DNA of 64,000 bases from assembly GCA_038238915.1 (NCBI GenBank), contig JBBSFH010000003.1, forward strand, positions 105,294 to 169,293, given 5' to 3'. The translations under genes were made by a program, and so were the position numbers. The stretch comes from Sphingomonadales bacterium (GTDB lineage: Bacteria; Pseudomonadota; Alphaproteobacteria; Sphingomonadales; Sphingomonadaceae). This document shows positions 49,645-64,000 of the stretch, piece by piece. Below the pieces are notes generated by a model. It was not told where the DNA came from and did no database searches. It saw only the letters and a list, made by a program, of their open reading frames with translations. Every line of letters starts with the position of its first letter. Position 1 is the stretch's first letter.

Positions 49645-50619
49645 TCAGGCCGCGAGCGCCGCCCACGGCGAGCGCGCGGGCGCGGTCACCGGCGCGGCGG
49701 TTGGGCCAGTGGCGGGAGAAGCGGCGGGCGCGCTCGCCTCGCCGATCTTGAGCGACAGTTGCAGCCAATCGATCGCGGCGGGGATCACCGGATGATCGAG
49801 CGCGACCAGCGGACCGGCGGTCGTGACGAGCTTGGGCGCGGCGTCCGCCAGCCACGACAGGATCGTCATCCCCGCCGCCGCCCGGCTGGCGTGGAGCGAA
49901 GTGTGCACATCGGGGAGCCGACCCATGCGCAGCGCCCCCGCGACCGCGCCCCAGACGTCGTGCGCGCCAAGCGCGAGGCGCAGATCGGGGTGGTGGAAGA
50001 TCGCGAACGCGGCCTTGATCGTGGCGAGCAGATCCTGCGCCATCATTACGGTGAGCCCGCTCGCAGCATTGGCCAGCCCCTCGGCAACGCGCGTGGCGGC
50101 GCGGCGCACGCGCGCCTGCTGCTGGAGGCCGCCCCACTGCGGATTGGTGGCGGCTTCATCGAGTTTGTAGAGCGCCTCGGTCAGTTCGATCATATCGGTT
50201 TCGAAATCGGCGTTGCCGGGATGATCGGCGGCGGCGACGCCGGTATCGCTGCCGAACAGGCGCGCGAATAGCGCCGCGCGCTCGTCCGGCGTGGCGCGCG
50301 TGTGGCGGTGTTGCCAGAATTGGGCGACATCGGGGGCGGCTCCGCCGAGTGCGAATGGAACGCCCGCACCGCTGAGCCCGGTCAGCGCCTCGGCAGCCCC
50401 GATCAGCCCGGCTGCATCGAGTTCGGCGGCAAGATACAGCCCCGCGATCGCGCGCAGTTGCGCGGAATCGGCGGTCGCGATGGGTGGCGGCAGGTCGATG
50501 CCCAGATCTTCGAGCGCCGTGGCAAAGCTGTGCGCTTGCGCGATCAGCCGCTCGGCCTCGCCGATCGCGCGCAACATCGTGGGTGCGTCGGGCGCTTCGT
50601 GGAGAGGACGCCCGGCCAT
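49645..50619 (-). CDS. Unknown family 2, short member (324 aa, all-helical)
   Basis: Blocks FWQHRHTRATPDERAALFARLFG, NADFETDMIELTEAL and HHPDLRLALGAHDVWGAV align to the C-terminal half of the 612-aa protein at 54210..56048. The start overlaps the stop of paralog B by 1 nt (TGATG). Confidence 0.7.
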   Translation of the reverse strand: MAGRPLHEAPDAPTMLRAIGEAERLIAQAHSFATALEDLGIDLPPPIATADSAQLRAIAGLYLAAELDAAGLIGAAEALTGLSGAGVPFALGGAAPDVAQFWQHRHTRATPDERAALFARLFGSDTGVAAADHPGNADFETDMIELTEALYKLDEAATNPQWGGLQQQARVRRAATRVAEGLANAASGLTVMMAQDLLATIKAAFAIFHHPDLRLALGAHDVWGAVAGALRMGRLPDVHTSLHASRAAAGMTILSWLADAAPKLVTTAGPLVALDHPVIPAAIDWLQLSLKIGEASAPAASPATGPTAAPVTAPARSPWAALAA

Positions 50620-51830
50620 CAGGCGTGCGCCGGGGCGGGCGTTGCGGCGGCGGCGGAGGGTTTGTTGGGATTGTACGGGAGCGAATTGCCCTGGATGACG
50701 CTCATCATCTCGGGCGTCGCCATCTTCTCCAGCGGCAGGTAATCGCTCTTGAAGTTGACGCGCACGTCGCCCGAGAGCTTGGCCTTGACTTCGGCCTTGC
50801 TTTCGCTCGTCTCATCGACCGCCGAGCCGACGGTGGCCATATGTTCCTGGACGTTTTCGTTGGTGTCGCTCGCGGAAACGCCCCAGCCGCTGAATCCCGC
50901 AGACGCCACGTTGCGGTTCATCGAGCTTTCCTTGTCGAACATCGATGCGCGCGCATCGGTCTTGGCAGTATCGCTCGCGCGCATATCGAACACGACTTTG
51001 GCATTTATTGACCCATCCGTAATAACTATGCGGTTTATACCGAGCATGACCATCGATGATAGCAGTTGCTGGCGTTGGCGAGCCATCTGCAATCTTGCGG
51101 CGGTGACGAGACGCGCCTCCGCGTTCGCGTCCGACAGATCAGTGATCGGCGGGTTGATGTTCATCTCGGCACTGATCTTGGCAAGCGCAACGGCGGGATC
51201 GTCGCCAACCGGCACGAGACGAGCGACGGGCGGCGCGGGATCGCCCTCGGCGAACGACGAGCTGCTCGAGATGTCGACAGCAAGCGCATCGGGAAAGCGC
51301 CCGGCGAGATAATCACGCCCCGCGCCCTCGCCGATATTGTCGGTCATGAATTGATCGACGGTCTTGGCGACGTTGGAGATCAGCTCGCCATAGGCTCGCA
51401 TCTGTTGCATCGAACTTTCGACGATCGCCTGGAAGACGTTCTTGATCAGACCACCGACGAACTTGGGGAAATCGACCTTCTGCACCAGCGCGCCGAACTG
51501 CTCGACACCCTGTTTGACCGCGCCCGCCTCGAAATTTTTGCCGACTTGTCCGGGTAGTCCCTTGGTAAGTTTGCCAAAGTTCTTGATGCCATCTGCCTGA
51601 TCCATCGCGCTCGCGGTAGGCGGCGTCGGCGTCGCCGACAGCGCGGTGCTCACCGCGTTCGGATCGGCGATGTAGCTCATCACTTTCACCATATCGCGCG
51701 CGAGCTGCTGCTGTTCGGGCTGCGGCAGTGCGCCAAACGCGGGGGCGGCGATCAGCATATCGCGCACCTGCGGACGCACGGCGGCAAGCGCCTGCCCGCT
51801 TGTCCAGCCGGGCGGATCGGCGAGCGCCAC
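50619..51830 (-). CDS. Unknown family 1, paralog B (403 aa)
   Basis: Blocks DFPKFVGGLIKNVFQAIVESSMQQMRAYGELISNVAKT, RQRQQLLSSMVMLGINRIVITDGSINAKVVF and VRVNFKSDYLPL. Confidence 0.75.
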   Translation of the reverse strand: MALADPPGWTSGQALAAVRPQVRDMLIAAPAFGALPQPEQQQLARDMVKVMSYIADPNAVSTALSATPTPPTASAMDQADGIKNFGKLTKGLPGQVGKNFEAGAVKQGVEQFGALVQKVDFPKFVGGLIKNVFQAIVESSMQQMRAYGELISNVAKTVDQFMTDNIGEGAGRDYLAGRFPDALAVDISSSSSFAEGDPAPPVARLVPVGDDPAVALAKISAEMNINPPITDLSDANAEARLVTAARLQMARQRQQLLSSMVMLGINRIVITDGSINAKVVFDMRASDTAKTDARASMFDKESSMNRNVASAGFSGWGVSASDTNENVQEHMATVGSAVDETSESKAEVKAKLSGDVRVNFKSDYLPLEKMATPEMMSVIQGNSLPYNPNKPSAAAATPAPAHA

Positions 51831-51834
51831 GGCC

Positions 51835-53136
51835 TTACGCCCGGGCGGGAGCGGCGGCGGGCGCGGCGGCGGCTGGCGGCGGCGTGGCCACGCGTGCCGA
51901 CGGCAACACGTTGGGATCGACCGGCGTGGAGTTTCCCTGGATCGCGGCGATCATGCCGGGCGTCGCCATCTTGTCCAAGGGCAGGTAATCGCTTTTGAAG
52001 TTGACTTCGACCGCGCCCATCAAATCGGCCGACGCCTGCAAGGACTCGACGCTCGAATCCTGCGCCGCGCTCATCGCGGTGATGATAGGCTTATTCTCGA
52101 ACTGGTATGTGCCCTTGGCGTAACGCTCGCTCGAACTGTCGACCGCGCCGTCCTTGTCGCGGGTGTAATTACCCTTACTGCTGCCATCGTAGGTGCCAGA
52201 CCCCGCGTAGGTCGTCTGGACGTTGCCATTCTGGTCGCGCGCCATGTCCATCGCCTGCGCGCTACGCTCGAGTTTACGGTTTTCCGCCGCTTGGAACTTG
52301 AACATCACCTTGGCCGAAATCTTGCCGCTGGTGACGACGATGCGATTGATGCCAAGCAGGACGGTGCTCGCCATCATCTGCTGGCGCTGCTTGGCAAGCT
52401 GCATTCGCGCGCCGACGACGAGCGCGCGCTCGACATTCTCGTCCGAGAGATCGAGGCTTTTCAGCTCGCCGTTCTCGAAACTCATCGAGCTGTTGACCTT
52501 CGCCCGCGCCTCACCCTCGTCCACCCCCTCGCGCAATTTCAGCTTGGGCTGCGGGTTGTCGCTCATCTCGTCGACGCCGATTTCGAACATGTCGGGGAAC
52601 TTTTGCTTAACATGATCGCGGCCGGCGTTTTCGGAGACATTGTCTTTCATGAATTCTTCCAGCGATTTGGCCACACTGGCGACCATCTTGCTGAATTCTT
52701 CCATCTGGGTAATCGACGTGTGAACGATCGCGTCGAACACGTTGGTGATCAGCCCGCCGACGAAGCCGGGAAAGTTGATGCCCTGGACGTAGTTGACCGC
52801 CGCAGTCACGCCCGCGTTGATCGCATCGGCCTTGAACCCACCCTTGCCGATCTCGCTCACTGCCTTCTGATGATCCTGAAACGTCCCCTCCTGTACCGGA
52901 CCGAAGGCACGCGCTGCGGGCGCGATGCCAAGGCCACCCGGAAGCCGCTGGCCCTCAAAACCCTCGGGCGCAGCCAGATAATCGGAGACAAGCGCCAGAT
53001 CCTTGGCGAGCGCGCGCTGCTTCTCGGGCGACATTGCAGCAAACGCGGGGCTACGCGTGAGAAGCCCGCGCACCGCCTCGCGCACTTCGGCGCGCGGGGT
53101 GGGCAGACGGACCGGGGGGGCGGAGGGCGGATGCAT
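51835..53136 (-). CDS. Unknown family 1, paralog C (433 aa)
   Basis: Blocks NFPGFVGGLITNVFDAIVHTSITQMEEFSKMVASVAKS, KQRQQMMASTVLLGINRIVVTSGKISAKVMF and VEVNFKSDYLPL. The N-terminal block PRAEVREAVRGLLTRSPAFAAMSPEKQRALAKDLALVSDYLAAP is shared with A and B. Confidence 0.75.
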   Translation of the reverse strand: MHPPSAPPVRLPTPRAEVREAVRGLLTRSPAFAAMSPEKQRALAKDLALVSDYLAAPEGFEGQRLPGGLGIAPAARAFGPVQEGTFQDHQKAVSEIGKGGFKADAINAGVTAAVNYVQGINFPGFVGGLITNVFDAIVHTSITQMEEFSKMVASVAKSLEEFMKDNVSENAGRDHVKQKFPDMFEIGVDEMSDNPQPKLKLREGVDEGEARAKVNSSMSFENGELKSLDLSDENVERALVVGARMQLAKQRQQMMASTVLLGINRIVVTSGKISAKVMFKFQAAENRKLERSAQAMDMARDQNGNVQTTYAGSGTYDGSSKGNYTRDKDGAVDSSSERYAKGTYQFENKPIITAMSAAQDSSVESLQASADLMGAVEVNFKSDYLPLDKMATPGMIAAIQGNSTPVDPNVLPSARVATPPPAAAAPAAAPARA

Positions 53137-53162: not shown

Positions 53163-54197
53163 TCAGGCGGCGAGTTGCTGGAGCGCCTGCGGACTCACCT
53201 CGAACTCGGCCGGACGCAGATAAAGGCTGATGCGCGGCGGCGCGTTGACGCCAGCGCGCACCGAGAGGATCGAGAAACGCCCGGGCCATACCTCGTCCTC
53301 GGGCGTGAACGCGGTCATCCAGCGACTGAGCGCGGCGAGTTCGCGCGGGCGTTCGGACATGCCGAGCGTCAGCAGGCTCAAAAACTCGGGCGGCAGATCG
53401 GGGATGCGCGCCAGCTGGACGTACAGCTCGAATTCGGGGCCGTGGTGCCCGATCCCGAACGCCATCAACGCCGAGGCGGGAGGAAGCTCGAAGCGCCCGC
53501 CGAGCACCAGGCCCAGGATTTGCATGATGCCGGGCAACCGCTCCCCCATCCCCAGTTCGTCGAGCACCGGACCGAGATCGGAGAGTTTGAGCGCATCGGG
53601 ATAGATGAACGTCAGCCGCTGGCCGCCCATATCGCGCTGCGCGCTGATCGTGGTGAACAGCGGCCTCAGCCCCGGCAGCATCCGCTGCGCGGTGGTGACC
53701 ACCTGGAACAGCGCAGGCGGCAGCTGCATCATCGCGGCGGGCGAGGTTTCGTAATAGACCTTGGAGGCATACAACCCGTCGCTATCGGTCGCAGCGCCGA
53801 AGAACGCGCCATAATCGAGGTTGTCCGATCCGAACCCGCGATAGGGTTCGGAGCGCTCGTCGAACCAGCGCAGCGTATCGCGCCCCAGGAACGCGCCGAC
53901 CATGCGGCGCATCTCGCGCGTCGCCTCGTCGCGCCGGTCCGCACCGCTTGCCTGCGGGGGCAGCGGTTCGATCGTGAAGCGGAGCTTGACGGGCTGCGTC
54001 TCCGAAAAGCTCGGCTCGAACGGTGCGGCCATCGGCGAGAGCGCGTTCCTCGCATAGCGCGGATCGCCTGCGGGCATCGGAAAGGTGCGGCCGATCAGGT
54101 CCGCCATCGGCGGTCCGGGATCGGCGGCTCCCAGCGCGCGCGCCGCCTGCGCGAGCCGCTGGGTGACCTTGGCGGAGAGGGGTTGGATGCGCATCAT
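53163..54197 (-). CDS. Hypothetical protein, possibly ABBA/DMATS-like aromatic prenyltransferase fold (tentative)
   Basis: 344 aa with recurring beta-strand motifs spaced like alpha-beta-beta-alpha repeats: VKLRFTIEPL, SKVYYETSP, QRLTFIYPD, EFELYVQL, RISLYLRPAEF. Assigned by pattern only. Confidence 0.3.
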   Translation of the reverse strand: MMRIQPLSAKVTQRLAQAARALGAADPGPPMADLIGRTFPMPAGDPRYARNALSPMAAPFEPSFSETQPVKLRFTIEPLPPQASGADRRDEATREMRRMVGAFLGRDTLRWFDERSEPYRGFGSDNLDYGAFFGAATDSDGLYASKVYYETSPAAMMQLPPALFQVVTTAQRMLPGLRPLFTTISAQRDMGGQRLTFIYPDALKLSDLGPVLDELGMGERLPGIMQILGLVLGGRFELPPASALMAFGIGHHGPEFELYVQLARIPDLPPEFLSLLTLGMSERPRELAALSRWMTAFTPEDEVWPGRFSILSVRAGVNAPPRISLYLRPAEFEVSPQALQQLAA

Positions 54198-54209: not shown

Positions 54210-56048
54210 CTAGTGACGTTGTGCGTTGCCGTTGCGCATTCCCATGCCCATTGCCGCGCCCGGGATCTCGTCCAGGAACTCGCGCGCGAACGCCGGGATC
54301 TGCACGGGTTGCGAGGTCATCACCGGAGACATTCGCGGCTGGCTCATCTCGTCCACACGGCTGTCCGACGTGGCGGTATCGGCGAGCCAGAGTTCGCACG
54401 CGTTGACGAGATCATAGTCGGACGGGTTTTTGGTCGCCTGGCTCGACAGCGTTGGCGCGGGCGAGCGCACGTCCATCATGTCGATCAGCACGCCCATCGG
54501 GCGCATGATCTTCACGATGTTGTTCGCCAGCCACGCGGTGATGATCGCGCCGCAGGTCGCGAGTACGCGGTAACGCGAACTGGTGCGCGCGCCGTGGAGG
54601 TCGCGCGTGGCGACCACGTCGATCACGCCCCACATGTCCTTGGCACCATGCGCGGCCTTGATCTCGGGATCGTCCAGGAGCGCGATCATCTGCTTGATCT
54701 CGCCCTGCAGTTCGAGCGCGGCGTAGTAAGTCATGCCAAAGCCGTGCAGCGACAGATTGGAGGCAAGATCGCGCGCCGCCTTGCGCATCTGCTGTGCTCC
54801 GGTTGCACTCGGCATCGCCGCGCGCAGCAGCTTGTCGACGTCCTGGTTGCGCACGAACTGCGAGACCGAGGAGACGAAGCGCAGCCACAGATCATTAAAA
54901 TCGGTATTGCCCTGGATCGCCGGATTCCCACCCGGCTGGCCCATCGTCATCGCGTAGAGATCGCGCCGCTCGGGCTCGCTCATGCGGTTGGGCGATTCCT
55001 TCCAGCGCTTGTAGAGGATTTGCCCGGCATTGCCCTTGCCGATCGCGAGCATGCCATTCTGGGCATTTTCGAGCAGCTTGTCGACGACCTGGAAGGCTTT
55101 TAGCTCATCGAGCATCGCCGCGCAGATCACCGGCCCCATCAGGCGCACATTGTCCGACACGATCTCGGTGTTCGAGACCGCGTCCAGATCGGGCAGATCG
55201 ATACCGATTTCGCTGGTGACGCCGTTGCCGGCAATGTTCTGGACCGTATCCAGCGCCTCGCTGACCTTGCGGCTGAGCTGCGGCGTGAACTGATCGACTT
55301 GCTTGAGCGCAAGCGCGCGCATCACCTTGGCGAACTCGGTCGCATCTACGTTCTGTGCGGGAGGGTGGGTGCCCTGTGTGTAGTTGGTACTGCCGTCCTG
55401 GTCATCGGCAATGGCACCGAGCTGGCCCAGAATGGCGAGCACGCGGCTGGATAGCGGCTTGTACGATTGTGCCTCGCCAACCGCCTTGAAGAAGGCCTTC
55501 CCCATAGCGGGCATCAGTGGGCTATCGGCGTCGGAGATCAGCGCGAAGTCGATGAACTGGTCTTGGGGCTGATCAGCCGGGTTAGGCGGCACATAGCCAA
55601 GACTGATTTTGACGGGGGGCGGCGTCACGCCGTCCAGCACCAGCAACCCGATTGTCAGCGCGCAGTCCACTGCGTTCGCTGTGTTGAGATTGCCCTTGAG
55701 GAGTTTGAGTGCGACGCCCGGCGGCTCGGAATCGAGCGATCCGACCGGATTGCCGAGTGTATCGTTCAACAGGCCGGTCCGGGCGTTGAACTGATCGCGC
55801 GCGGCAACAAACAGCGGATCGCAAAACTCGCCGCGTTGATCGTCGATGACGTCGAGCGTCAGCGCGATCCGGGCGCGTTCGGCCTTCTCCTCGATCGAAT
55901 AGAAAACCTGATCGGTCTCGCGGCCGACCCCCTGGCCGCCACGCGAGCGGGCAGAGCGATCGAGCTGGATCAATCGTTCGTTCAGCCGATGCCGTTCGGC
56001 AAGCTCGCGCTGGGCGATATCGCGGTACTGGATGGTGGTCACACTCAT
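54210..56048 (-). CDS. Unknown family 2, long member (612 aa)
   Basis: ATG at 56048, 8 nt after AAGGAG, inside ORF 54210..56393. Alternative ATGs at 56102 and 56099 overlap the S8 stop. The C-terminal half (LYKRWKESPNRMSEPERRDLYAMTMG, NTDFNDLWLRFVSSV, DDPEIKAAHGAKDMWGVI) is paralogous to 49645..50619. Confidence 0.7.
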   Translation of the reverse strand: MSVTTIQYRDIAQRELAERHRLNERLIQLDRSARSRGGQGVGRETDQVFYSIEEKAERARIALTLDVIDDQRGEFCDPLFVAARDQFNARTGLLNDTLGNPVGSLDSEPPGVALKLLKGNLNTANAVDCALTIGLLVLDGVTPPPVKISLGYVPPNPADQPQDQFIDFALISDADSPLMPAMGKAFFKAVGEAQSYKPLSSRVLAILGQLGAIADDQDGSTNYTQGTHPPAQNVDATEFAKVMRALALKQVDQFTPQLSRKVSEALDTVQNIAGNGVTSEIGIDLPDLDAVSNTEIVSDNVRLMGPVICAAMLDELKAFQVVDKLLENAQNGMLAIGKGNAGQILYKRWKESPNRMSEPERRDLYAMTMGQPGGNPAIQGNTDFNDLWLRFVSSVSQFVRNQDVDKLLRAAMPSATGAQQMRKAARDLASNLSLHGFGMTYYAALELQGEIKQMIALLDDPEIKAAHGAKDMWGVIDVVATRDLHGARTSSRYRVLATCGAIITAWLANNIVKIMRPMGVLIDMMDVRSPAPTLSSQATKNPSDYDLVNACELWLADTATSDSRVDEMSQPRMSPVMTSQPVQIPAFAREFLDEIPGAAMGMGMRNGNAQRH

Positions 56049-56098: not shown

Positions 56099-57529
56099 TC
56101 ATCCGTCCTCGGTTTCGGGTTGGTCGTGGTCGATGAAACGATCGACCGCAGCGAGCGCGGCGGCGGCATCGAGTACCCCCGCGCCGCAGCCGGGTGCCGG
56201 GCCGGGGAAGGTACGCGCGGACGCGGCTAGCAGGTGCTTGATCATGGGCGGATCGAGCGGGAAGGCGCGGCGTTCGGCGCGCGCGATCATCAGCGCGACC
56301 GTCGCGGTGACGAATGGCGCGGCAAAGCTGGTGCCCGTCGCGCGCTGATAGCCTTCGAGCGCAGCGGTGAAGACGCGCTCGCCCGGCGCGCACAGCGCCA
56401 CATGATCGCCGCGCGTCGAGAAGCCGGTAGGCCGCATGTCCGCGCCGACTGCGCCCACCGCGATCACCTGCGGGTAGGCGGCAGGCCAGTAGACGGTTTC
56501 CTTGCCGTTGTTGCCGCTCGCGGCGACGAAGGCGCAGCCGCGGTCCGCACCATAGGCGATCACGTCGGCGTGCGGCTTGGGGATATGCGCTCCGAGCTGC
56601 GCATCGTCTGTGCCGAAACTGAGGTTGAGCACGCGCGCGCCCAGATCGATCGCGAGCTTGGCGGCGGCATCAAGATCGGCGATCGCACCCATGCCGATCG
56701 CGCCCGCGCGCCCTGGCAGCCGGGCCGCGCCGAGCGCGCGCATCGGCAACAGCTGCGCCTCGCCCGCCATCCCCGGCGGCATATCGAGGCCGAGCGCGCC
56801 GATGATCGCCGCGCAGGCCGAGCCGTGGCCGACATAATGATCGACCGGCTCATGATCGGGATTGTTCCCGCTGCTAAGGATCTCGACACCTTGGGCGACA
56901 TCGCTCTGGCCAAGATTGACGGTATCATAGCCCTGGCGGAAGCGGCGCGCGAATTCGGGGTGGGTGGGTGCGACGCCGCTATCGACGATGCCCACGATCA
57001 CGGTGCTGTCGCCGGGTTCGTAGGCGAGCGCCTGCGGGCCACGGATCATCGCCCACGGCGCCCACATCTCCCCGTCGTCGACCGTTTCGACCGCGAAGGC
57101 CATGTCGAAAGGATTGGCGGCGACATAATTGGGGCTTGCCCACTCGACCGTGCTTACAGCCGAGAGCGCGTCGACCAGATTGCCGAGCGCGGTGGTGCGA
57201 TCGGTTTTGATGAGGAAGGTGCGCGCGAGGCCGCTCGTCTGTTCGGCGTCGGTATAGTGGCGGTTGCGGGAGCCCTTGCGGCCGATATTGGCGGCGGACG
57301 TATGCAGCCGCGCAATCGCAACCTCGCCGCCGTGCGCATGCAGGATGCGATCGATCGCGCCGCCGTCCATCGTGCGTGCCGCCGGAGCCGCGTGGTCGCG
57401 CACGTCGTTTCTCGCGGGGATCGCGGCAGGCGCTTCGCCGAGCGCCACCTTGAGTAGCAGCGAGCCGGGCAGGCAGTAGGCGCTCGATCCGGGCGGAACC
57501 CAGGGCGCGGCGAGGCGGCGCATCGTCAT
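56099..57529 (-). CDS. Subtilisin-like serine protease (S8 family) without an obvious signal peptide
   Basis: Catalytic contexts GIVDSGVAPTHPEF (Asp), HYVGHGSACAAIIGA (His), VAASGNNG (oxyanion Asn) and ATGTSFAAPFVTA (Ser). About 150 aa of N-terminal pro-region. ATGA overlap with the upstream gene. Confidence 0.85.
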   Translation of the reverse strand: MTMRRLAAPWVPPGSSAYCLPGSLLLKVALGEAPAAIPARNDVRDHAAPAARTMDGGAIDRILHAHGGEVAIARLHTSAANIGRKGSRNRHYTDAEQTSGLARTFLIKTDRTTALGNLVDALSAVSTVEWASPNYVAANPFDMAFAVETVDDGEMWAPWAMIRGPQALAYEPGDSTVIVGIVDSGVAPTHPEFARRFRQGYDTVNLGQSDVAQGVEILSSGNNPDHEPVDHYVGHGSACAAIIGALGLDMPPGMAGEAQLLPMRALGAARLPGRAGAIGMGAIADLDAAAKLAIDLGARVLNLSFGTDDAQLGAHIPKPHADVIAYGADRGCAFVAASGNNGKETVYWPAAYPQVIAVGAVGADMRPTGFSTRGDHVALCAPGERVFTAALEGYQRATGTSFAAPFVTATVALMIARAERRAFPLDPPMIKHLLAASARTFPGPAPGCGAGVLDAAAALAAVDRFIDHDQPETEDG

Positions 57530-58317
57530 GCGTGTGCTCCCGTGCCGTTGATTGCGCCGTTAGCCACCGGCGGCGGTGGCGCGAACGGGCGCAGATCAAA
57601 CGCCATCGAGGTGGCGACCATAGGCGCGGGCTCGACGCGAAGTTCACCCGCCCATTGATGCGGCGCGGGTGCGAGCAGCAGTTCGTCCGCGCTCGCCTTC
57701 ACCACCGCTACCGGCTCGCCGCCAAGCGTCACCGATGGCGGCCCCGCCTGCATGAGGTTGCGCCCGCGCACGCGCATCAGCGGCATGTCGCCCTCGCCGC
57801 CGGGGACGGGCACCACATGCTCCATCAGCGGCGCGGACGCGCGTTCGAGTGCCTTGCGCAGCCGATCGATGGGCAGGTTGGTCACGCGCCCGATCGCTGA
57901 ATCGCCGCCACGCGCCATGCTCTCCTTGAGCTTTGAGACGGTGCGCACGCCGACCCATTCGAGCTTGCGGCGATCCTCCTCGGACAACCCGTCGCCCAGT
58001 TCGTCGAGCGAGGTATCATGCGGACCGTCCGCAAACGCGACCGCGTTCTCCTCGATCATCGGCCGGGTGATCGCGGCGAACACGAGGTGGAACACGCTCG
58101 CCTGCACATCCGCCGCCCCGGCCGGGCGAATGCGGATTTCGCCCGCCGTAAACTCCACCTGCGCGCGCAGATCGAGCGTGATGTCCTTGATCGCGAAGGT
58201 GAGCGGCAGATTGAGGTTATGCGCCTTCACCGCCATCGCGGTCTGCGCCTTATCGAGCTGGCTTTGCACCGCCTGAATGAAGTTTTCGAGCGGGAGGGCG
58301 GCGGTGGCGGTGGTCAT
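57526..58317 (-). CDS. Hypothetical protein (263 aa): N-terminal helix + beta-hairpin domain, HhH-like middle, IPT/TIG-like C-terminus
   Basis: ATG at 58317 inside ORF 57526..58419, with an ATGA overlap onto the 75-aa ORF. PLENFIQAVQSQLDKAQTAMAVKAHNLNLPLTFAIKDITLDLRAQVEF; LEWVGVRTVSKLKE...LPIDRLRKAL; MRVRGRNLMQAGPPSVTLGGEPVAVVKASADELLLAP. Confidence 0.6.
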   Translation of the reverse strand: MTTATAALPLENFIQAVQSQLDKAQTAMAVKAHNLNLPLTFAIKDITLDLRAQVEFTAGEIRIRPAGAADVQASVFHLVFAAITRPMIEENAVAFADGPHDTSLDELGDGLSEEDRRKLEWVGVRTVSKLKESMARGGDSAIGRVTNLPIDRLRKALERASAPLMEHVVPVPGGEGDMPLMRVRGRNLMQAGPPSVTLGGEPVAVVKASADELLLAPAPHQWAGELRVEPAPMVATSMAFDLRPFAPPPPVANGAINGTGAHA

Positions 58318-58541
58318 GGCCGTGCCTCCCACGTGAGGTGGAGGCGCGAGGGGGGCGCATCGAACTGGGTTCGTGTGACGGTGCGCGGGAAATCGGCGAA
58401 CAGCGCGCCGCCGGTCCACGCGATTTCGATGGGGAGCTTCATTTCGATGCGGGTGACGCGCACGCCGACGCTACCGCCCGCGACCATTGCGCCCTCGGCC
58501 ACCTCCGCGATCATATCGCCCATTTGGCGCCGCGCGCTCAC
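58314..58541 (-). CDS. Small hypothetical protein (75 aa)
   Basis: MSARRQMGDMIAEVAEGAMVAGGSVGVRVTRIEMKLPIEIAWTGG... Coupled on both sides: its GTG start overlaps the stop of paralog D (GTGA) and its TGA stop overlaps the next ATG (ATGA). Confidence 0.5.
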   Translation of the reverse strand: MSARRQMGDMIAEVAEGAMVAGGSVGVRVTRIEMKLPIEIAWTGGALFADFPRTVTRTQFDAPPSRLHLTWEARP

Positions 58542-59677
58542 CGTGTTGCTCCAGCGGGTGCGGGCGGCGGGGCGGACGCGATCACGACCGGCGGGGGCAG
58601 CGTGGCGACGGCGCTTGGGGGTTGCGTTGGTGCAATCGGTGGCGTGGCAGCGCGCTGCGGTCCGCGCGCGTGGCGTTCGAGCTGGCCGCGCTTGGCATCG
58701 TCCACGAAACGATCGAGCGGCACGGTCTCGCTGGCGAAGTTGATCTTCACTTCGCCAAATAACTGCGCCTTGAGTTCGCTATCGGCCTGGACATTGACGC
58801 CCATGGTCGAAACCTTCGTCGTCGGAGCGTCGTAGGTGGTCGAGCCGCGCGCTCCCCACTGTGTCGCATTGCTTTGCGGATCCGAACCGGTCGCATAATC
58901 GAATTTCTTGTGATCGGCAGCAGACGCGCGGAAGCGGACGTTGGCGTTGATCGAGCCATCCTTGACCACAACGCGATTCATTCCGAGCAGCACCATCGTC
59001 GAGAGCGTCTGCAACCGCTGCTTCGCCACGGTCTCGCGCGCATGGGCGAGGATCTGCTGTTCGAGCACCTCCGAAGTCAGTTCCTGTCCTTCCAGGCCAT
59101 AATCTGCGAGCACGCGCGGTGCCTCCGCCTCCCCGTCCGGCCCGGCTGTCCTGGCGATCGGCACCAATGTTGGTGTGCCGCTTTCGTGGTTCAGCGCCAC
59201 GTCACGCGGATATTGTTCGACAAGATAGTCACGCGCCTGGTTCGGCGTGACATTCTCCTGCGTGAATTGTTCGAGCGGCTTGGCGACGGCTGCGACAAGG
59301 TCGGCGAAGCTCTCCATCTGGCGGATCGACGCGTCGACGATCGCGTCGAACGTGCCGTGGACCAGGCTGGCAACGAAGGCGGGGAAATCGACTTCATCGA
59401 CAAGGTTGCCCACGCGCCGCCCGAGCGCGTCGGTTGCGAGTTCGCGCTTGGCGGGCGGAGAGGCGGGCGCTGGCGTTTGCGACGCGCTATCGGCGGGCGG
59501 GCCCGCCGCGTCGGGAATCTCGCGCCCGAACGCATCGCGCGCGAGGCTGCGCACGAGCGGCGCACGGCCGTAACTCGGCGGTGGAGGAGGGGGGCGCAGA
59601 CCCGGCACGTGCAACCGATCAGGCGCTGACGTGGAGGGGATCGAGTTCCCATTCGTTGGTGCGGTCGTGACGCCCAT
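58538..59677 (-). CDS. Unknown family 1, paralog D (379 aa; start uncertain, overlaps the end of the upstream gene by 59 nt)
   Basis: Blocks DFPAFVASLVHGTFDAIVDASIRQMESFADLVAAVAKP, KQRLQTLSTMVLLGMNRVVVKDGSINANVRF and VKINFASETVPL. Pro-rich N- and C-termini. Confidence 0.7.
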   Translation of the reverse strand: MGVTTAPTNGNSIPSTSAPDRLHVPGLRPPPPPPSYGRAPLVRSLARDAFGREIPDAAGPPADSASQTPAPASPPAKRELATDALGRRVGNLVDEVDFPAFVASLVHGTFDAIVDASIRQMESFADLVAAVAKPLEQFTQENVTPNQARDYLVEQYPRDVALNHESGTPTLVPIARTAGPDGEAEAPRVLADYGLEGQELTSEVLEQQILAHARETVAKQRLQTLSTMVLLGMNRVVVKDGSINANVRFRASAADHKKFDYATGSDPQSNATQWGARGSTTYDAPTTKVSTMGVNVQADSELKAQLFGEVKINFASETVPLDRFVDDAKRGQLERHARGPQRAATPPIAPTQPPSAVATLPPPVVIASAPPPAPAGATR

Positions 59678-62600
59678 CGCCGTGCAGGATCACGCGAACC
59701 GCCGATCGATGCTCGGGCTGCGTGGCGTGGGTGAAACGATGGCGCAGTTCGACCGTCATCCCCGCAACCGTCTCGCTGTCCGGCCCGTCGAGGACTTCTC
59801 CCTCGACCGCAAGTGACCAGCCGTCGCTCAGCCCCGCATTCTCGGGCATCACGCGCACATCGCCGACCGTGCCGCCGCCATAATGCCACGCGATCTTGAC
59901 CGCGCCGAAGGTTCTGCCGTGCTCGTCGGGCATTCGGGGCCAGTCCGCGACGCTGATCATCCCGGACTGGATATCGGCGTTCATCATGACTTGCGTTCGA
60001 GGCGCGCGCATGCCGTCCAGCTGTTCGAGCGAGAAGGTTACCCCGTCGCGTGCGGTGGTTTCGGTGCGGCGCATCCCCAACGGCGGCGGCCCGACGTCCA
60101 GCCCGCGCGCGGCGGTGCGCGTGGGCGGGGGCGGGGCCATGCGGCGCGGCGCGTAGGATTGCGCGTAGCCCGCCGGAGGCGATCCCCGGTTGGGCTGACG
60201 GCCGCCGGTGTCGGGCGCGTACATGATTTGCAGGATATTGTCCTCGACGCGCGCTTGCCGCATCTCGTAATCGTTCATGAACTCCTCGAAGCGCATGATG
60301 TAGCGGCTGCCTGTCGTGTGTGTATCCAGGTAGCTGCCGGGCGCTTGCGGTGTTCCGACCACGCGGTCCCAAGGGTCGGCGACGCGAACATAGGCGTTGG
60401 TGCCGTCCGAATAGAGGCCGACCACCACAACCGCGTGACCGCTATCGAACCCCGTCTGCCCCGGTGCCATGAGTTTGGTGACCACCATCGGGCCGTGCGC
60501 TTCAACCAACTGGCGGAAGCCATCGACGTTGAAGCATTGCGGCGGCCCAACTTCGAGTCCTACCTGCTTGGCAAACCGCGCCCGGGCCGCAGCGAGCGGC
60601 GATTGCCCGTCGGTGAGCGAAATGGCGCACAGCCGCGCCAGCATGTCCTCGTCTACCGATACGCGGTCGCGCCATCCAACAACCATGGCGGTTGCAGCGC
60701 CGACGCAGGTCGTACCGGTATGCTGCGGAACCAGGTCCACATCGTCCCAGGTGACGCTGAACGCGCCCGAGTCCATCGCGCGCGCGGGGGTGGATTTCGC
60801 ATACGCCAGCAGATGCCCGAACAGCCCGCCCGAGGGCGCGGCCTTCAGGTGGCCGATGTAGCGCAGCTTGGAGAAGTCGAAGCGCAGATTGGCGATATCG
60901 TCGGGCGAGGCCCAGTTGGGCTGTTCCGACGTGAGCGGTTGTCCTGCGGCGCGATAGGCTTCGAGCACCAGTTCCGAACAGAAAAAGCTGTCGTTGGAAG
61001 CCGTGCCCATGTCGATTCGGCCCGCGAACGCGCGGCAGCGGTCGGACAGGCCGTTGGGAAGCGCCGAGCACAGGCGCTGATCGATCTGGAACAGCGCCTG
61101 GCGCGCGATGCCGATGTGGTTGTAATCCTGCCCGATGTGGGCGGCGGCGGCGTCGGCCACCTGCTGGCGCTGATCGCGCGTGAGGCCGGGCACCCGGAAC
61201 GCGACTGCGACCGTGGCCGAAGCGATCGCGTCGCCGAGAGGCACCATGCGCACGCCCTCGCCCACCGCTTCGATCACCTGCCCGCCCTGATCCACATACA
61301 GCATCACGTGGCTGACCTGCCCGCTGGTGGCGGCGCGGATCGCACGGCTGATCGTCGCGTCCGTAGTCGAAAGGATGATGTCGCCCACCTGGAGCGCGTT
61401 CATCCCGATCGACTGGCCGCCGACGCCCGGATCGAGCGGGATTTCCGCATCGAACAGGCGGGCGGTGCGCGGGGGGAGGCCAAGCGACTGGCCGGTGGGC
61501 AGCGATACGCGTTGCTGGATCATCTGCATGAAATGATCCCAGTCCCACGGCGCGGCGTTGGGACAGGATGTATGCGTGGTGTGCGCGTCCGCTTCCGAAT
61601 GGCCGATGATGTGCGTGCGATCGGTCGGGATCGAGTATTTGTCGCAGAGATAGCTGACCAGCGCGGCCGATTCGGCGTATTGGATATCGGTGGGCGGTAG
61701 CGCAGGCAGCGTGGTGCGCCCGTAGGTCGCGCCGCGCTGGTTCACGCAGACGTGCTCAATCCCGATACTGCGCGAATTGACCCCGTGTGCGTGCCACGCG
61801 ATGTCCAGTTCGCGCACGAACTGCACGATCTCGCCATCCTGGCCCACGAGGTAATGAGCGCTCGAGTTCGCGTCGGCGCGCGTGAAGTGGCCAACCGTGC
61901 TTCCGGTCGTGTTCGCGTCGGTGATGTGGATGACGACGCGATCGATCGTGCGGCCCGGCCGAGAGGTGAAGGCGGGCGAGGCCTCGAAGCGCGATGCGCG
62001 CGGGTAATCGGGCGTCGCGGCGAGCGCGCCTGACCATGCCTGCGTCTGCACGGACGGATCGCTCGCGGCGGGGCCCTCAATCCCCATCGTATCGGGATCG
62101 ACGTCCATCGCACTGGCGCGCGGCCCGCATTCTCCGAGCGCCGCCGCCATGCCGAGCGTGGTCGCGACCGAACGCTGGACCGAGACGTAGAAATCGACCG
62201 GCGAGAAGCCTGCGCCCACGCCCACCTGCGCGCTCACGCCCTGGAAATTGGCCTGGGTATCGAACAGCGCCGATGCGCCCGCCACGATCCCCTCGCCGCC
62301 CGAGATGGTCGCCGAATTGCTCCAGCCGCCGAACGCATCGATCGCGCCACGTATCACGGTGATTTGCACCGACGCATTGACCGACAACACGAAGCCGACA
62401 TCGAACTGCGCGCTGCCGTAGACGCCCAGGCTGTTGTCGGGACCGAAGATGATGCCAGCCCCCAAAGTGCCGCCCGCGCCCAATCCTGCGCCCACGGACG
62501 GCCCGAGGCCGATCGACACGGGCGTGCCCGCAGCAGCCGATGCGGTTGCGGCAAGGCGGAGTGCAGCGATCATCGGTGCGAGCGGGCCGGTCAGCACCAT

Positions 62601-63410
62601 CAGCGCGGCATCGGCGGCCACCCGCGCGACGCCGCTCAGGCGGGTGACCGGGGGTGCCGTCACCGGGTTGCGCACGGACCCGATTGTCACGTCGTTCGAC
62701 ATCGCGCTCGCGGGGCTTCGTGTGCCGTTCCATGCCATCGACTTGGCTGCGGCGGGGGGTGGGGTCGATGTGGCTGGGGACGGCGTTGCTGCCGACGTGG
62801 ACGGGGCGGATGCGCTGGCCTTGTCCGGCGCTGGTGCGGTAGGCGCAGGCGCAGGCATCGGGCCGAAGCCGTCGTCATAATGCGCCGCAGGTGGCGGATT
62901 GGTGTTCGCGGGCTGACTGCTTGCGCGTTCGGCGGGGCGCTGGCCGGGCTGGGCGGTATCGCCAGCCCAGTCGAGCAAACCCTCGCCCGGCCCGCGCGCC
63001 CGGCCGGGGATTACCCGCACCCGGCGCAGACTGCGGCCGGTCAGCGCGCGTAGCGAGACATAGGGGCTATCCGTAGTGGGGAGGACTTCCACTTCGAAGG
63101 CCCCAGGCCCTGTCGCGGGCGCGGTTGCGAGCCCGAAATAGAGCTTCTCCGATCCGACGAACCGCGCGAGGATTTCGGGCGGCAGCACATAGACCGCCTC
63201 GCCGCGAGGGGCTGCGAGCGGACCGCCCGCACGGCTCGAATAGAAATTGCCCGCCGAACGCCGCGCCTTGCCCTCGGGTGCCAGCAGTGCGGGATCGGTC
63301 GCGACGGCCACCTCGGCGCGGCGAGGTTCGCCGTGGGTGCGGATGGTGAAGCCCAGCATCGGGAAGCGGTCGTTCACCTCGAGGCGGGTCGGGCGGATCA
63401 TCGCTGGCAT
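59619..63410 (-). CDS. Giant multidomain protein (1263 aa): unknown N-domain, Pro-rich linker, Gly-zipper hydrophobic region, Amidase_2 (PGRP-type N-acetylmuramoyl-L-alanine amidase), YiiX/permuted-papain NlpC/P60-like domain, second papain-like Cys peptidase domain, unknown C-domain
   Basis: ATG at 63410 follows the TAG of the upstream gene inside ORF 59619..63731. Amidase_2: RTIDRVVIHITDANTTG...AHYLVGQDGEIVQFV...AWHAHGVNSRSIGIEH...IIGHSEA...CPN (nt ~61512-61958). YiiX-like: QVGDIILSTTDATISRAIRAATSGQVSHVMLYV...NDSFFCSELVLEAY (nt ~60897-61400). Papain-like: QHTGTTCVGAATAMVVGW...DSGHAVVVVGLYSDG...VRVADPW (nt ~60252-60764). Gly-rich: GLGPSVGAGLGAGGTLGAGIIFG... (nt ~62142-62639). Confidence 0.8.
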   Translation of the reverse strand: MPAMIRPTRLEVNDRFPMLGFTIRTHGEPRRAEVAVATDPALLAPEGKARRSAGNFYSSRAGGPLAAPRGEAVYVLPPEILARFVGSEKLYFGLATAPATGPGAFEVEVLPTTDSPYVSLRALTGRSLRRVRVIPGRARGPGEGLLDWAGDTAQPGQRPAERASSQPANTNPPPAAHYDDGFGPMPAPAPTAPAPDKASASAPSTSAATPSPATSTPPPAAAKSMAWNGTRSPASAMSNDVTIGSVRNPVTAPPVTRLSGVARVAADAALMVLTGPLAPMIAALRLAATASAAAGTPVSIGLGPSVGAGLGAGGTLGAGIIFGPDNSLGVYGSAQFDVGFVLSVNASVQITVIRGAIDAFGGWSNSATISGGEGIVAGASALFDTQANFQGVSAQVGVGAGFSPVDFYVSVQRSVATTLGMAAALGECGPRASAMDVDPDTMGIEGPAASDPSVQTQAWSGALAATPDYPRASRFEASPAFTSRPGRTIDRVVIHITDANTTGSTVGHFTRADANSSAHYLVGQDGEIVQFVRELDIAWHAHGVNSRSIGIEHVCVNQRGATYGRTTLPALPPTDIQYAESAALVSYLCDKYSIPTDRTHIIGHSEADAHTTHTSCPNAAPWDWDHFMQMIQQRVSLPTGQSLGLPPRTARLFDAEIPLDPGVGGQSIGMNALQVGDIILSTTDATISRAIRAATSGQVSHVMLYVDQGGQVIEAVGEGVRMVPLGDAIASATVAVAFRVPGLTRDQRQQVADAAAAHIGQDYNHIGIARQALFQIDQRLCSALPNGLSDRCRAFAGRIDMGTASNDSFFCSELVLEAYRAAGQPLTSEQPNWASPDDIANLRFDFSKLRYIGHLKAAPSGGLFGHLLAYAKSTPARAMDSGAFSVTWDDVDLVPQHTGTTCVGAATAMVVGWRDRVSVDEDMLARLCAISLTDGQSPLAAARARFAKQVGLEVGPPQCFNVDGFRQLVEAHGPMVVTKLMAPGQTGFDSGHAVVVVGLYSDGTNAYVRVADPWDRVVGTPQAPGSYLDTHTTGSRYIMRFEEFMNDYEMRQARVEDNILQIMYAPDTGGRQPNRGSPPAGYAQSYAPRRMAPPPPTRTAARGLDVGPPPLGMRRTETTARDGVTFSLEQLDGMRAPRTQVMMNADIQSGMISVADWPRMPDEHGRTFGAVKIAWHYGGGTVGDVRVMPENAGLSDGWSLAVEGEVLDGPDSETVAGMTVELRHRFTHATQPEHRSAVRVILHGDGRHDRTNEWELDPLHVSA

Positions 63411-63414
63411 GGGG

Positions 63415-63798
63415 CTACCTCGGTCCGATGGGCGACGCGGGCGTCGCGGGGTTGGTGTGCGTTGGAAGCGGACGGGCACGCGCGCGGATCGCGCGGCGCT
63501 CGAAATCGGGGACGCTGCCGAGTAGCGCGCTGAGCGCATCATCATCGGTGACCTCGGCAATCGGTCCATGTGCGGCCTCGAAGCGCTCGACCGCGTCCGA
63601 AAACAGCCGCGCGAACAGCTTGGCCTGCACCGGTCCCGCCACGATGCGCGAATGGACGTGGACCGAGTCGGTCTCGGGGCGGAACTGGCCGAAATCCAGC
63701 AGGAACTCGAAGGCATTGTGGCCGACTTCACAATAGTTCGCGTAAACCGCGAGCGGTGCGCCGTTGGTAGCCGGGGCGAGTGCGGGTGGGGTCATCAC
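63415..63798 (-). CDS. DUF3467-like small protein (first gene of the sigma-54 operon)
   Basis: (GTG)MMTPPALAPATNGAPLAVYANYCEVGHNAFEFLLDFGQFRPE...VHSRIVAGPVQAKLFARLFSDAVERFE. The YAN..V.H...EF.LDF core matches my recollection of DUF3467. Confidence 0.6.
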   Translation of the reverse strand: MMTPPALAPATNGAPLAVYANYCEVGHNAFEFLLDFGQFRPETDSVHVHSRIVAGPVQAKLFARLFSDAVERFEAAHGPIAEVTDDDALSALLGSVPDFERRAIRARARPLPTHTNPATPASPIGPR

Positions 63799-63807
63799 GC
63801 AGCGCGA

Positions 63808-63823
63808 TGCAATCGGCGTGCCA
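63808..63823 (-). promoter_or_regulatory. Sigma-54 (RpoN) -24/-12 promoter
   Basis: The minus strand reads cTTGGCACgccgaTTGCATcgcg, which is TGGCAC-N5-TTGCA, the full consensus. It lies in the 121-nt gap between the Fis-HTH regulator stop (63920) and the operon's first start codon (63798/63795). Confidence 0.6.
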
Positions 63824-63919: not shown

Positions 63920-64000
63920 TTACACGCCAACGCTGCGTTCGATGTTGTAGTGCGCAAGCTTGCGGTAGAGCGTCATGCGCGACCAGTTGAGTGCCTTGGC
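63920..64000 (-). CDS. 3' end (last 26 codons) of a Fis-type HTH regulator, probably a sigma-54 enhancer-binding protein; the rest lies outside the window
   Basis: The minus-strand frame reads ...AKALNWSRMTLYRKLAHYNIERSVGV*. This is the characteristic C-terminal HTH_8 (..S..TLYRKL..Y.I) of NtrC-family activators. Confidence 0.55.
   Translation of the reverse strand, partial: AKALNWSRMTLYRKLAHYNIERSVGV

Follow-up and report, generated by a model that had tools for sequence, protein, structure and literature searches.

Modular phage endolysins and virion-associated lysins, such as those that join CHAP and Amidase_2 domains to a wall-binding module, carry several enzymes on one chain together with a C-terminal non-catalytic beta module. 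They have no signal peptide, gain access to the wall through a separate membrane lesion, and their modules are shuffled among relatives. The same features are found or presumed in BIG, a 1263-residue protein encoded at positions 59619-63410 on the minus strand of a 64,000-nucleotide stretch of DNA from a Sphingomonadales bacterium (contig JBBSFH010000003.1, positions 105,294 to 169,293; hereafter the window, within which all positions are counted, on the minus strand unless stated otherwise). BIG differs from phage lysins in being three to five times larger and in carrying a 135-residue N-domain and a hydrophobic Gly-rich module that are unknown in lysins. It also differs in its setting: no holin or spanin gene accompanies it, the system is found on no phage or viral contig, and BIG sits in a fixed cellular operon of 12 genes. 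Holin-endolysin cassettes place a small membrane holin next to the lysin, whereas no product of the BIG operon has a transmembrane helix. We tentatively propose, leaning towards this reading without holding it for probable, that BIG is the endolysin-like, wall-directed lytic effector of an undescribed 12-gene lysis module that would be induced by sigma54 and gated by a protease.

Three further groups of described systems invite comparison. Protease-gated effector systems (Pepco/Trypco1-2, EACC1, bacterial gasdermin; bioRxiv 10.1101/2025.11.14.688446; PMC7159879) resemble the BIG operon in coupling a serine protease to a Trypco2-like protein, in being cytoplasmic without export signals, and in including candidate beta-barrel formers with Pro-rich tails. 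Trypco and Pepco proteins act as toxins that form beta-barrel pores upon activation by a protease (bioRxiv 10.1101/2025.11.14.688446), and peptidoglycan-directed effectors, such as lysozyme and papain-like peptidases, have been noted in some protease-gated conflict systems (bioRxiv 10.1101/2025.11.14.688446; eLife 2020, PMC7159879). Unlike these systems, the BIG operon has no STAND, vWA-MoxR or other NTPase sensor, employs an S8 subtilase instead of a trypsin or caspase, and features unusually conserved core proteins and a dedicated transcriptional activator; its Trypco2-like protein matches the Trypco2 profile below threshold and comprises 263 residues, compared with about 117 for Pepco. The S8 polymorphic toxin systems (S8-PTS; PMC9424270) share with the operon a constant N-terminal region, variable enzymes and an S8 peptidase, here encoded four genes downstream of BIG. 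However, the toxins of S8-PTS bear a signal peptide and a BetaH domain, end in one hypervariable toxin domain (in most cases a nuclease) and are encoded beside an immunity gene (PMC9424270), whereas BIG ends in a constant C-terminal domain and has no signal peptide, nuclease-type tip or immunity gene. R- and F-type tailocins with their fibres are likewise cytoplasmic, without export signals or an immunity gene, and combine a conserved N-terminal anchor with a fast-evolving distal part; the BIG operon differs from them in that no homology to tail, sheath, tube, baseplate or fibre families was found. Literature searches on DUF3467, the BIG domain combination and descriptors of the operon found no paper describing it.

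BIG contains three enzymatic domains, and profile searches against Pfam and NCBIfam confirmed the catalytic families that an earlier sequence-only reading of the window had assigned to them. The first is an Amidase_2 (N-acetylmuramoyl-L-alanine amidase) domain at residues 486-618 (61557-61955), which matches PF01510 over profile positions 2-130 of 131 (E=3e-29; 102 bits against a cut-off of 26); endolysin and amidase families of PHROGs match residues 468-649. It is followed by a YaeF/YiiX-type permuted papain of the NlpC/P60 superfamily (C92) at residues 662-857 (60840-61427). Here the NCBIfam YaeF match (E=1e-40) falls below the equivalog cut-off of that model, and Pfam Peptidase_C92 (PF05708) matches residues 673-765 (E=2e-13; 50.9 bits against a cut-off of 27). 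The third is an AvrRpt2-like papain of the Peptidase_C70/C39_2 type at residues 890-1016 (60363-60743; PF12385, E=1e-17, 64.5 bits against a cut-off of 19). In a structural model of BIG, this part matches the staphopain fold in the PDB (probability 1.0, template modelling score 0.53-0.56) and, in BFVD, a cyanophage protein whose annotation is lysozyme.

All copies of the modules were pulled from 120 BIG relatives and aligned. The Zn ligands H495, H604 and C616 and the catalytic E552 of Amidase_2 are kept at 96-100% in 92 family copies, with H604 and C616 aligning with H154 and D164 of AmpD. The catalytic H701 (SHVMLYV) and C811 (FFCSELV) of C92, which appear in permuted order with the histidine before the cysteine and align with the catalytic motifs of YiiX (structure 2if6), are kept in 100% of 36 copies, and the C70 triad of C902, H992 and D1012 is kept at 96-99% in 150 copies. 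Catalytic residues, on which the earlier assignment depended, are present in all three domains at 96-100% conservation. As judged from these alignments, BIG is a modular wall hydrolase predicted to be catalytically competent, whose MurNAc-L-Ala amidase and two papain-type peptidase/amidase domains are all intact.

Mapping the modules of the window BIG onto the 120 relatives, which range from 700 to 1800 residues, revealed constant ends and a shuffled middle. The N-domain is present in 119 of the 120, as one copy starting at residue 1, and the C-domain in 114, as one copy at the C-terminus. C70 (106 of 120, up to four copies), Amidase_2 (63, up to three copies), C92 (36, one copy) and the Gly-rich module (72, up to two copies) occur in variable order, and some relatives carry trypsin-like, DUF3238, PGDYG or Rv2525c glycoside-hydrolase-like modules as well. 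An earlier homology search with the N-domain alone had returned nearly exclusively contig-edge fragments, which were uninformative on architecture, and was replaced by an exhaustive profile search that yielded 599 representative clusters. Of the 150 matches listed, nearly all begin at the N-terminus of the protein itself; most of the proteins are 700-1800 residues long, and the shorter ones are probably fragments. A Pfam census of 39 proteins ranked by the N-domain alone found C70 in 27, Amidase_2 in 17, Trypsin_2 in 15, C92 in ten, C39_2 in five and DUF3238 in four, with CHAP, NlpC/P60 and Rv2525c-like domains occurring once each. No nuclease, deaminase or ADP-ribosyltransferase was found in these 39 or in about 120 listed relatives, nor any lipase in the 39.

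Median identity to the window BIG is 52% for the N-domain and 46-60% for the enzymes, but only 29% for the C-domain, which is the fastest-evolving constant part of the protein. About 10% of the orthologues (loci L009, L010, L050, L056 and L061) have no recognisable enzyme in an otherwise intact operon, and L012 is likewise without one; such orthologues either combine the N-domain and DUF3238 with three to four C-domain-like modules or have no Pfam match at all. The C-domain-like repeats, in three to four related copies, are found in L009, L010, L012 and L056. A junction motif, [RQHK]-[AGSTV]-[LMF], precedes all four module types, typically as A-R-A-L/M before C70, A-R-A-F before C92 and A-R-G-L before the C-domain; examples in the window BIG are ARAM at residues 876-879 and ARGL at residues 1101-1104. 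Its density is 2.6 per 100 residues in the 40 residues upstream of modules compared with 0.9 elsewhere, an approximately three-fold difference. Subtilisins prefer a hydrophobic residue in P1 and a small one in P2, and the motif may suit cleavage by the S8 protease of the operon, which would turn BIG into a polyprotein. The BIG architecture is a new variant of modular cell-wall lysins, in which the catalytic domains are familiar and the N-domain, the hydrophobic module, the C-domain and the linker motifs are not.

The first 470 residues of BIG have no match in Pfam, NCBIfam, PADLOC or PHROGs. We modelled the non-enzymatic regions with AlphaFold2 in a deletion construct that joins residues 1-470 to 871-1263, using 34 family sequences; its inter-domain geometry is unreliable (predicted template modelling score, pTM, 0.36). 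The N-domain (residues 1-135; 63006-63410) is predicted to be beta-rich, with a predicted local distance difference test score (pLDDT) above 90 over residues 1-130, and has no PDB relative by profile or fold search. It is followed by a linker rich in Pro, Ala, Ser and Thr (residues 136-244; 62679-63005), which is predicted to be disordered (pLDDT below 50 over residues 132-243, approximately); both regions had been recognised in the sequence-only reading. Within the linker, the motifs W148-A-G-D151 and Y178-D-D-G-F-G183 (62862-62969) are near-invariant, each being found a single time in 109-115 of 120 homologues. The C70 peptidase AvrRpt2 cleaves the protein site PxFGxW (PMC3661340), with which the linker sequence D-G-F-G-P has just the FG core in common; self-cleavage of the linker by the C70 domain of BIG is thus possible, but this core makes it a lead only.

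The hydrophobic Gly/Ala/Ser-rich module follows (residues 245-420; 62151-62678), with two Ala-rich helices and about seven strands predicted by AlphaFold2 over residues 245-400 and a membrane-like composition (grand average of hydropathy +0.69, 7% charged residues). This region had been described as a glycine zipper. It is indeed hydrophobic and Gly-rich, but its seven GxxxG motifs, against 4.1 ± 1.7 when the same residues are shuffled, and the predicted mixture of helices and strands argue only weakly for a zipper. The C-domain (residues 1111-1257; 59640-60080) is predicted to be all-beta, with a pLDDT above 90; the domain proper measures about 150 residues and not the 200 or so estimated before. 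Fold searches of the PDB and BFVD identified no relatives of the N-domain, the Gly-rich module or the C-domain with a query that was a multi-domain chimera, which may have lowered sensitivity and masked weak N- and C-domain matches. BIG has no signal peptide, in agreement with the earlier reading, and neither a hydrophobic N-terminus nor a transmembrane helix.

The open reading frame runs from an ATG at 63410, with a ribosome-binding site (GAGG) 7 nt 5' of it, to a stop codon at 59619-59621, exactly the coordinates first given for the 1263-residue protein, and an identical protein is held in public collections (P0001). GC content at third codon positions (GC3) is 0.81 for the stop-to-stop frame that holds it, in a window with an overall GC content of 65%. 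The product begins MPAMIRPTRLE, three residues earlier than the N-terminus MIRPTRLE from which it had initially been read. A plus-strand reading of the same interval was ruled out, as its translation is riddled with stops. A 1370-residue, GTG-started frame extending to 63731 was also ruled out: it runs into the DUF3467 gene, and it is the ATG at 63410 that has the ribosome-binding site and matches the database protein. Further open reading frames overlap BIG at 59883-61700 (plus strand, 605 residues), 59191-60372 (393 residues) and 60502-61548 (348 residues); these are high-GC artefacts, coding-type GC3 being restricted to the BIG frame.

BIG is the second gene of the minus-strand operon, which extends from about 63795 to 48166 in the order DUF3467, BIG, parA, 75-residue protein, 263-residue protein, S8, p727, p344, parB, parC, p324 and parD. 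A genome scan with one genome per species identified 164 relatives, and the operon is strictly colinear in the best 80 of the 164 loci, on which colinearity was judged. These 80 loci span Alpha-, Beta-, Gamma- and Deltaproteobacteria, Holophagales, Actinobacteria, Cyanobacteria, Chloroflexia and Cytophagia. Monoderms and diderms share one and the same gene set, and most hosts live in soil, the rhizosphere or water, among them Lysobacter, Cytophagia and Chloroflexia. No relatives of the operon were found in phage or viral collections. The DUF3467 gene precedes BIG in every locus covered, and BIG lies upstream of parA wherever this region is covered, with a single exception in Cupriavidus. The latter locus (Cupriavidus necator A5-1, L079) was considered as a BIG-less system and rejected, since it is a truncated remnant beside housekeeping genes: it keeps only p344, parB, parC, p324 (in two copies) and parD, is adjoined by fumarase and NuoF-like genes, and is probably decaying.

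BIG is the sole variable member of this otherwise fixed operon. Its payload changes between loci (for example, four C70 domains; three Amidase_2 domains and C70; or DUF3238, C70 and trypsin) with no genes being added. The earlier suggestion that BIG is the effector or tool of its operon stands insofar as BIG is the variable enzymatic component, its enzyme content differing between orthologous loci while the other genes are fixed. No immunity gene was found in any of more than 80 loci, as had already been noted for the window: the gene directly downstream of BIG is the conserved structural paralogue parA in every locus, and no small gene co-varies with the payload. A signal peptide or transmembrane helix was found in none of the operon products (transmembrane helices were assessed with a Kyte-Doolittle threshold of 1.6 over 19 residues), and no secretin or lipoprotein feature occurs among them. 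Likewise, no operon product matches an ATPase or NTPase family in Pfam or NCBIfam, and no Walker A motif was seen on reading p727.

A distant, reduced variant of the operon lies on a Tolypothrix plasmid (L004; NZ_CP063787.1, 136150-147368). It has no BIG gene and comprises S8, one par gene, a p727-like gene, a Trypco2-like gene whose product ends in a TIG domain, an alpha/beta-hydrolase and a PG_binding_1 protein. The same arrangement is present on two other cyanobacterial plasmids.

In the lysis module that we propose, a dedicated enhancer-binding protein would turn the operon on. All products would be made in the cytoplasm, where the N-domain would dock BIG to the conserved machinery, perhaps held by the DUF3467 protein. 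The S8 protease would then activate pore or ring formers, namely the Trypco2/Pepco-like protein and/or the four par paralogues with their cleavable Pro/Ala tails, and it may also cut BIG at R-[A/G]-[L/M/F] junctions. On this reading, the peptidoglycan would have to be reached through a membrane lesion that the products of the operon themselves open. The breached cytoplasmic membrane would let the enzymes reach the peptidoglycan of the producer itself, with the Gly-rich module of BIG possibly helping through membrane contact. The C-domain would bind the wall, the amidase would cleave the MurNAc-L-Ala bond and the peptidases would cut stem peptides, leading to lysis. Lysis may be an end in itself, as an altruistic or abortive death or as a means of releasing cell contents, or else the step that frees an outward attack. 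The presence of the same operon in monoderms and diderms argues against an envelope-spanning secretion machine.

Several observations point towards this proposal. The S8 gene is translationally coupled to that of the 263-residue protein, in which a Trypco2 match recurs below threshold; this suggests a protease-gated pore former. The persistence of the wall theme in the Tolypothrix variant (alpha/beta-hydrolase, PG_binding_1) despite the missing BIG also suggests a wall-directed function. The conserved catalytic residues, the constant ends around a shuffled middle, the restricted payload, the colinear operon, the absence of export features, the sigma54 promoter, the long hairpins of the parB model, the membrane-like module and the junction motif are consistent with it as well. 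Other observations weigh on the opposite side. Docking, S8 cleavage, membrane breach and attack on the wall are all inferred from sequence; the Trypco2 match lies below the Pfam cut-off, and the idea of a par pore derives from a model with a pLDDT of 65 and without a significant structural match. The roughly 10% of enzyme-free orthologues imply that wall hydrolysis is not the indispensable function, unless their modules represent unknown enzymes. Module shuffling and the fast-evolving C-domain resemble an arms race with foreign targets more than adaptation to the cell's own wall, and the 11 conserved partner genes far exceed the needs of a holin-endolysin pair. Finally, the junction motif could equally be a relic that travels with each module cassette during shuffling.

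The operon may go further and represent a categorically new machine, a view that we consider possible but on balance doubtful. Such a machine would be cytoplasmic and without a recognisable ATPase, and a large conduit of par and Pepco-like proteins, triggered by the subtilase, would deliver BIG to the wall of the producer or, after release, of a competitor. If true, this would be a third way of bringing lytic enzymes to the wall, besides holin-endolysin cassettes and dedicated secretion systems, and one that has spread by horizontal transfer over at least eight phyla. A set so conserved and tightly regulated, which combines a lytic battery with a protease switch and candidate pore formers, likely controls cell lysis or killing. 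Its study could yield a new mechanism of regulated lysis or delivery, naturally shuffled multi-enzyme lysins for enzybiotic design, and an annotation for over 1200 protein clusters that at present carry the label "hypothetical".

The main alternative, unlikely but serious, is that the operon encodes a tailocin-like released weapon. Here, an S8-matured cytoplasmic complex of paralogue rings and helical proteins would be freed by lysis of the producer, with BIG as its target-engaging arm: the N-domain would anchor BIG, the C-domain would bind a foreign surface or wall, the enzymes would dig through peptidoglycan, and the hairpin paralogues would puncture the target membrane, while self-protection would come from receptor specificity and not from an immunity gene. 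The conserved N-terminal anchor, variable enzymes and fastest-evolving C-domain (29% versus 52% identity) suit such an arm, as do the shuffling and multiplicity of modules, with up to four C70 or three Amidase_2 copies, and the enzyme-free variants made of binding-type beta modules. The operon also resembles tailocins in its missing immunity gene, its dedicated transcriptional activator is typical of weapons, its highly conserved core proteins would befit a structural machine, and its hosts live mostly in soil, rhizosphere and water. However, searches of Pfam, PHROGs, the PDB and BFVD revealed no homology to phage tails, sheaths, tubes or baseplates, and the operon is absent from viral collections; a contractile injection system or tailocin context was rejected on the same grounds, as the neighbouring genes have no supporting Pfam or PHROGs matches and no relatives in viral collections. 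There is no evident route over the outer membrane of a target, and the particle itself is hypothetical. Moreover, release would still require lysis of the producer, so that this alternative overlaps with the lysis proposal, the inside-out first step being common to both. The sequence-only reading had instead described the architecture as polymorphic-toxin-like. A classical polymorphic toxin would be exported, intoxicate neighbours, be countered by a cognate immunity protein and be released by S8. That amidases and peptidases acting on peptidoglycan serve as interbacterial effectors is well established, as in the Tae and Tse families of the type VI secretion system. The variable enzymes behind a constant N-terminal region agree with the description, and the operon includes an S8 protease, as do the S8-PTS described from Gram-positive bacteria (PMC9424270). 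The remainder of the architecture does not agree: the C-terminus is constant, the shuffling is internal, and the payload is restricted to wall hydrolases and peptidases, with no nuclease, deaminase or ADP-ribosyltransferase tip in the 39 sampled or about 120 listed relatives. BIG has no signal peptide, known trafficking domain or Rhs/filament repeats, about 10% of orthologues carry no enzyme, the downstream gene is a conserved paralogue, no small gene tracks the payload and no orphan toxin cassettes were seen. In its defined sense, the polymorphic-toxin reading is therefore the least probable of the explanations considered here.

Two alternatives place BIG in a non-killing role. As a wall-remodelling tool, it would open the sacculus locally for an envelope-spanning structure, like the lytic enzymes of flagella and of type III and type IV secretion. 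BIG is always encoded beside a fixed set of probable structural proteins, its enzymes are wall-specific, and sensor-less sigma54 activators also control secretion machines (HrpR/S). Set against this, the operon proteins show no transmembrane helix, signal peptide, secretin or lipoprotein feature, the gene sets of monoderms and diderms are identical, three to five lytic domains per chain are excessive for local opening, and payload shuffling is unexpected in a housekeeping tool; we consider such a role very improbable. The enzyme-free orthologues, together with the PG_binding_1 protein of the cyanobacterial variant, speak for a non-lytic scaffold or sensor, whose beta modules would bind peptidoglycan or muropeptides and report wall damage to the S8 switch, with the enzymes as accessories. 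Peptidoglycan-binding domains have been reported as sensor modules on Pepco-associated proteases (bioRxiv 10.1101/2025.11.14.688446). Yet the 96-100% conservation of catalytic residues in about 90% of orthologues implies selection for catalysis, a cytoplasmic protein would meet recycled muropeptides only, and wall binding by the C-domain is itself putative, which makes this explanation improbable too.

The proposed sigma54 control derives from the region upstream of the operon. A sigma54 (-24/-12) promoter, TGGCACGCCGATTGCA, lies at 63808-63823, matches TGGCAC-N5-TTGCW without mismatch and is the sole exact match to this consensus in the window. GG-N10-GC elements that agree with 8-10 of 11 consensus positions occupy the same intergenic region in five proteobacterial loci. 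Just 13 nt separate the promoter from the DUF3467 ATG (63795) downstream, which implies a transcript with little or no leader unless DUF3467 in fact starts at another codon. Further upstream, the window edge cuts a gene whose C-terminal end (63920-64000), as read from the sequence, is HTH_8-like and terminates in AKALNWSRMTLYRKLAHYNIERSVGV before the stop codon. This regulator is presumably a sensor-less sigma54 enhancer-binding protein, and a gene of 312-342 residues with Sigma54_activat and HTH_8 domains occupies the same position in five proteobacterial loci (L001, L003, L005, L006 and L007). The Cellulomonas locus has a BTAD/TPR regulator instead of the sigma54 activator.

For ten of the 12 operon proteins, neither a curated family nor a solved structure was matched above threshold, yet their order is fixed in more than 80 species. 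Sequence and profile searches of the PDB with parB, p727, p344, DUF3467 and the N-domain gave nothing significant, and PADLOC matched generic subtilase models alone and no known defence system. The first gene (63415-63795) encodes a protein of about 126 residues with a DUF3467 domain (PF11950, E=1e-13), which may be a chaperone or adaptor, and its stop codon is 5 nt before the BIG start. Downstream of BIG, parA (58538-59677) is the first of four paralogues with shared motifs and has a conserved position in the 80 loci; its annotated ATG overlaps the 3' end of BIG, and the true start may lie downstream. The next gene encodes a conserved small protein of about 75 residues (58314-58541), and its stop codon overlaps the following start (ATGA). 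The 263-residue protein (57526-58317), the stop codon of which overlaps the S8 start in the same manner (ATGA), has a Trypco2 (Pepco)-like N-terminus: matches in three orthologues have E-values of 0.0013, 0.0098 and 0.015 and scores of 16-19 bits, below the Pfam cut-off of 24.2, and always cover profile positions 2-44 of 78. A TIG-like C-terminus of this protein is seen in its cyanobacterial homologue. The S8 subtilase (56099-57529; PF00082, E=2e-35) contains the D-H-S triad motifs and no signal peptide. Its best NCBIfam model is the mycosin of the type VII secretion system, below the cut-off of that model. A link to type VII secretion through the mycosin-like S8 and a W-x-G motif was ruled out on the grounds that no EccC-type ATPase is encoded and that the motif belongs to the disordered linker.

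The remaining genes comprise p727 (54210-56048; its product probably has about 612 residues, starting at MSVTT), p344 (53163-54197, no assigned role), parB (51835-53136), parC (50619-51830, a par paralogue with the shared motifs), p324 (49645-50619) and parD (48166-49641), the last gene of the operon, next to a convergent gene. The par paralogues feature a helical N-terminal part, long beta-hairpins and Pro/Ala-rich tails. More than 1214 homologues of parB were found at 55-80% identity, all of them named no more than "hypothetical protein" and without Pfam annotation save a stray PF08696 on two matches. The AlphaFold2 model of parB (pLDDT 65) shows a helical bundle with long beta-hairpins; a fold search with it gave no significant match, and its only, non-significant neighbours, with long hairpins, are ring and pore formers. 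The p324 protein and the C-terminal half of p727 are paralogous (26% identity over 345 residues; BLASTP E=8e-17), and the operon thus appears, from these comparisons, to be largely built of two duplicated families, the four par genes and the helical p727/p324. A prenyltransferase of the ABBA type (Trp_DMAT) was considered for p344 but is unsupported, the match being found in one orthologue only (E=0.059) and probably noise. In Cellulomonas, p344 is fused to the p727 homologue (L002, 18252-21227, 991 residues).

In one metagenomic locus (L005, 1-8120), the operon adjoins a ThiF/JAB/UQ_con (E1/E2/deubiquitinase-like) cluster with FHA, trypsin-like and HSP70 genes, a neighbourhood of the conflict-system type that was not seen in the other loci. 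The N-terminal 65 or so residues of the Trypco2-like protein are nearly identical between Cellulomonas (L002, Actinobacteria) and Burkholderia (L003, Betaproteobacteria), which, judging by the sequences, points to either extreme conservation or recent horizontal transfer.

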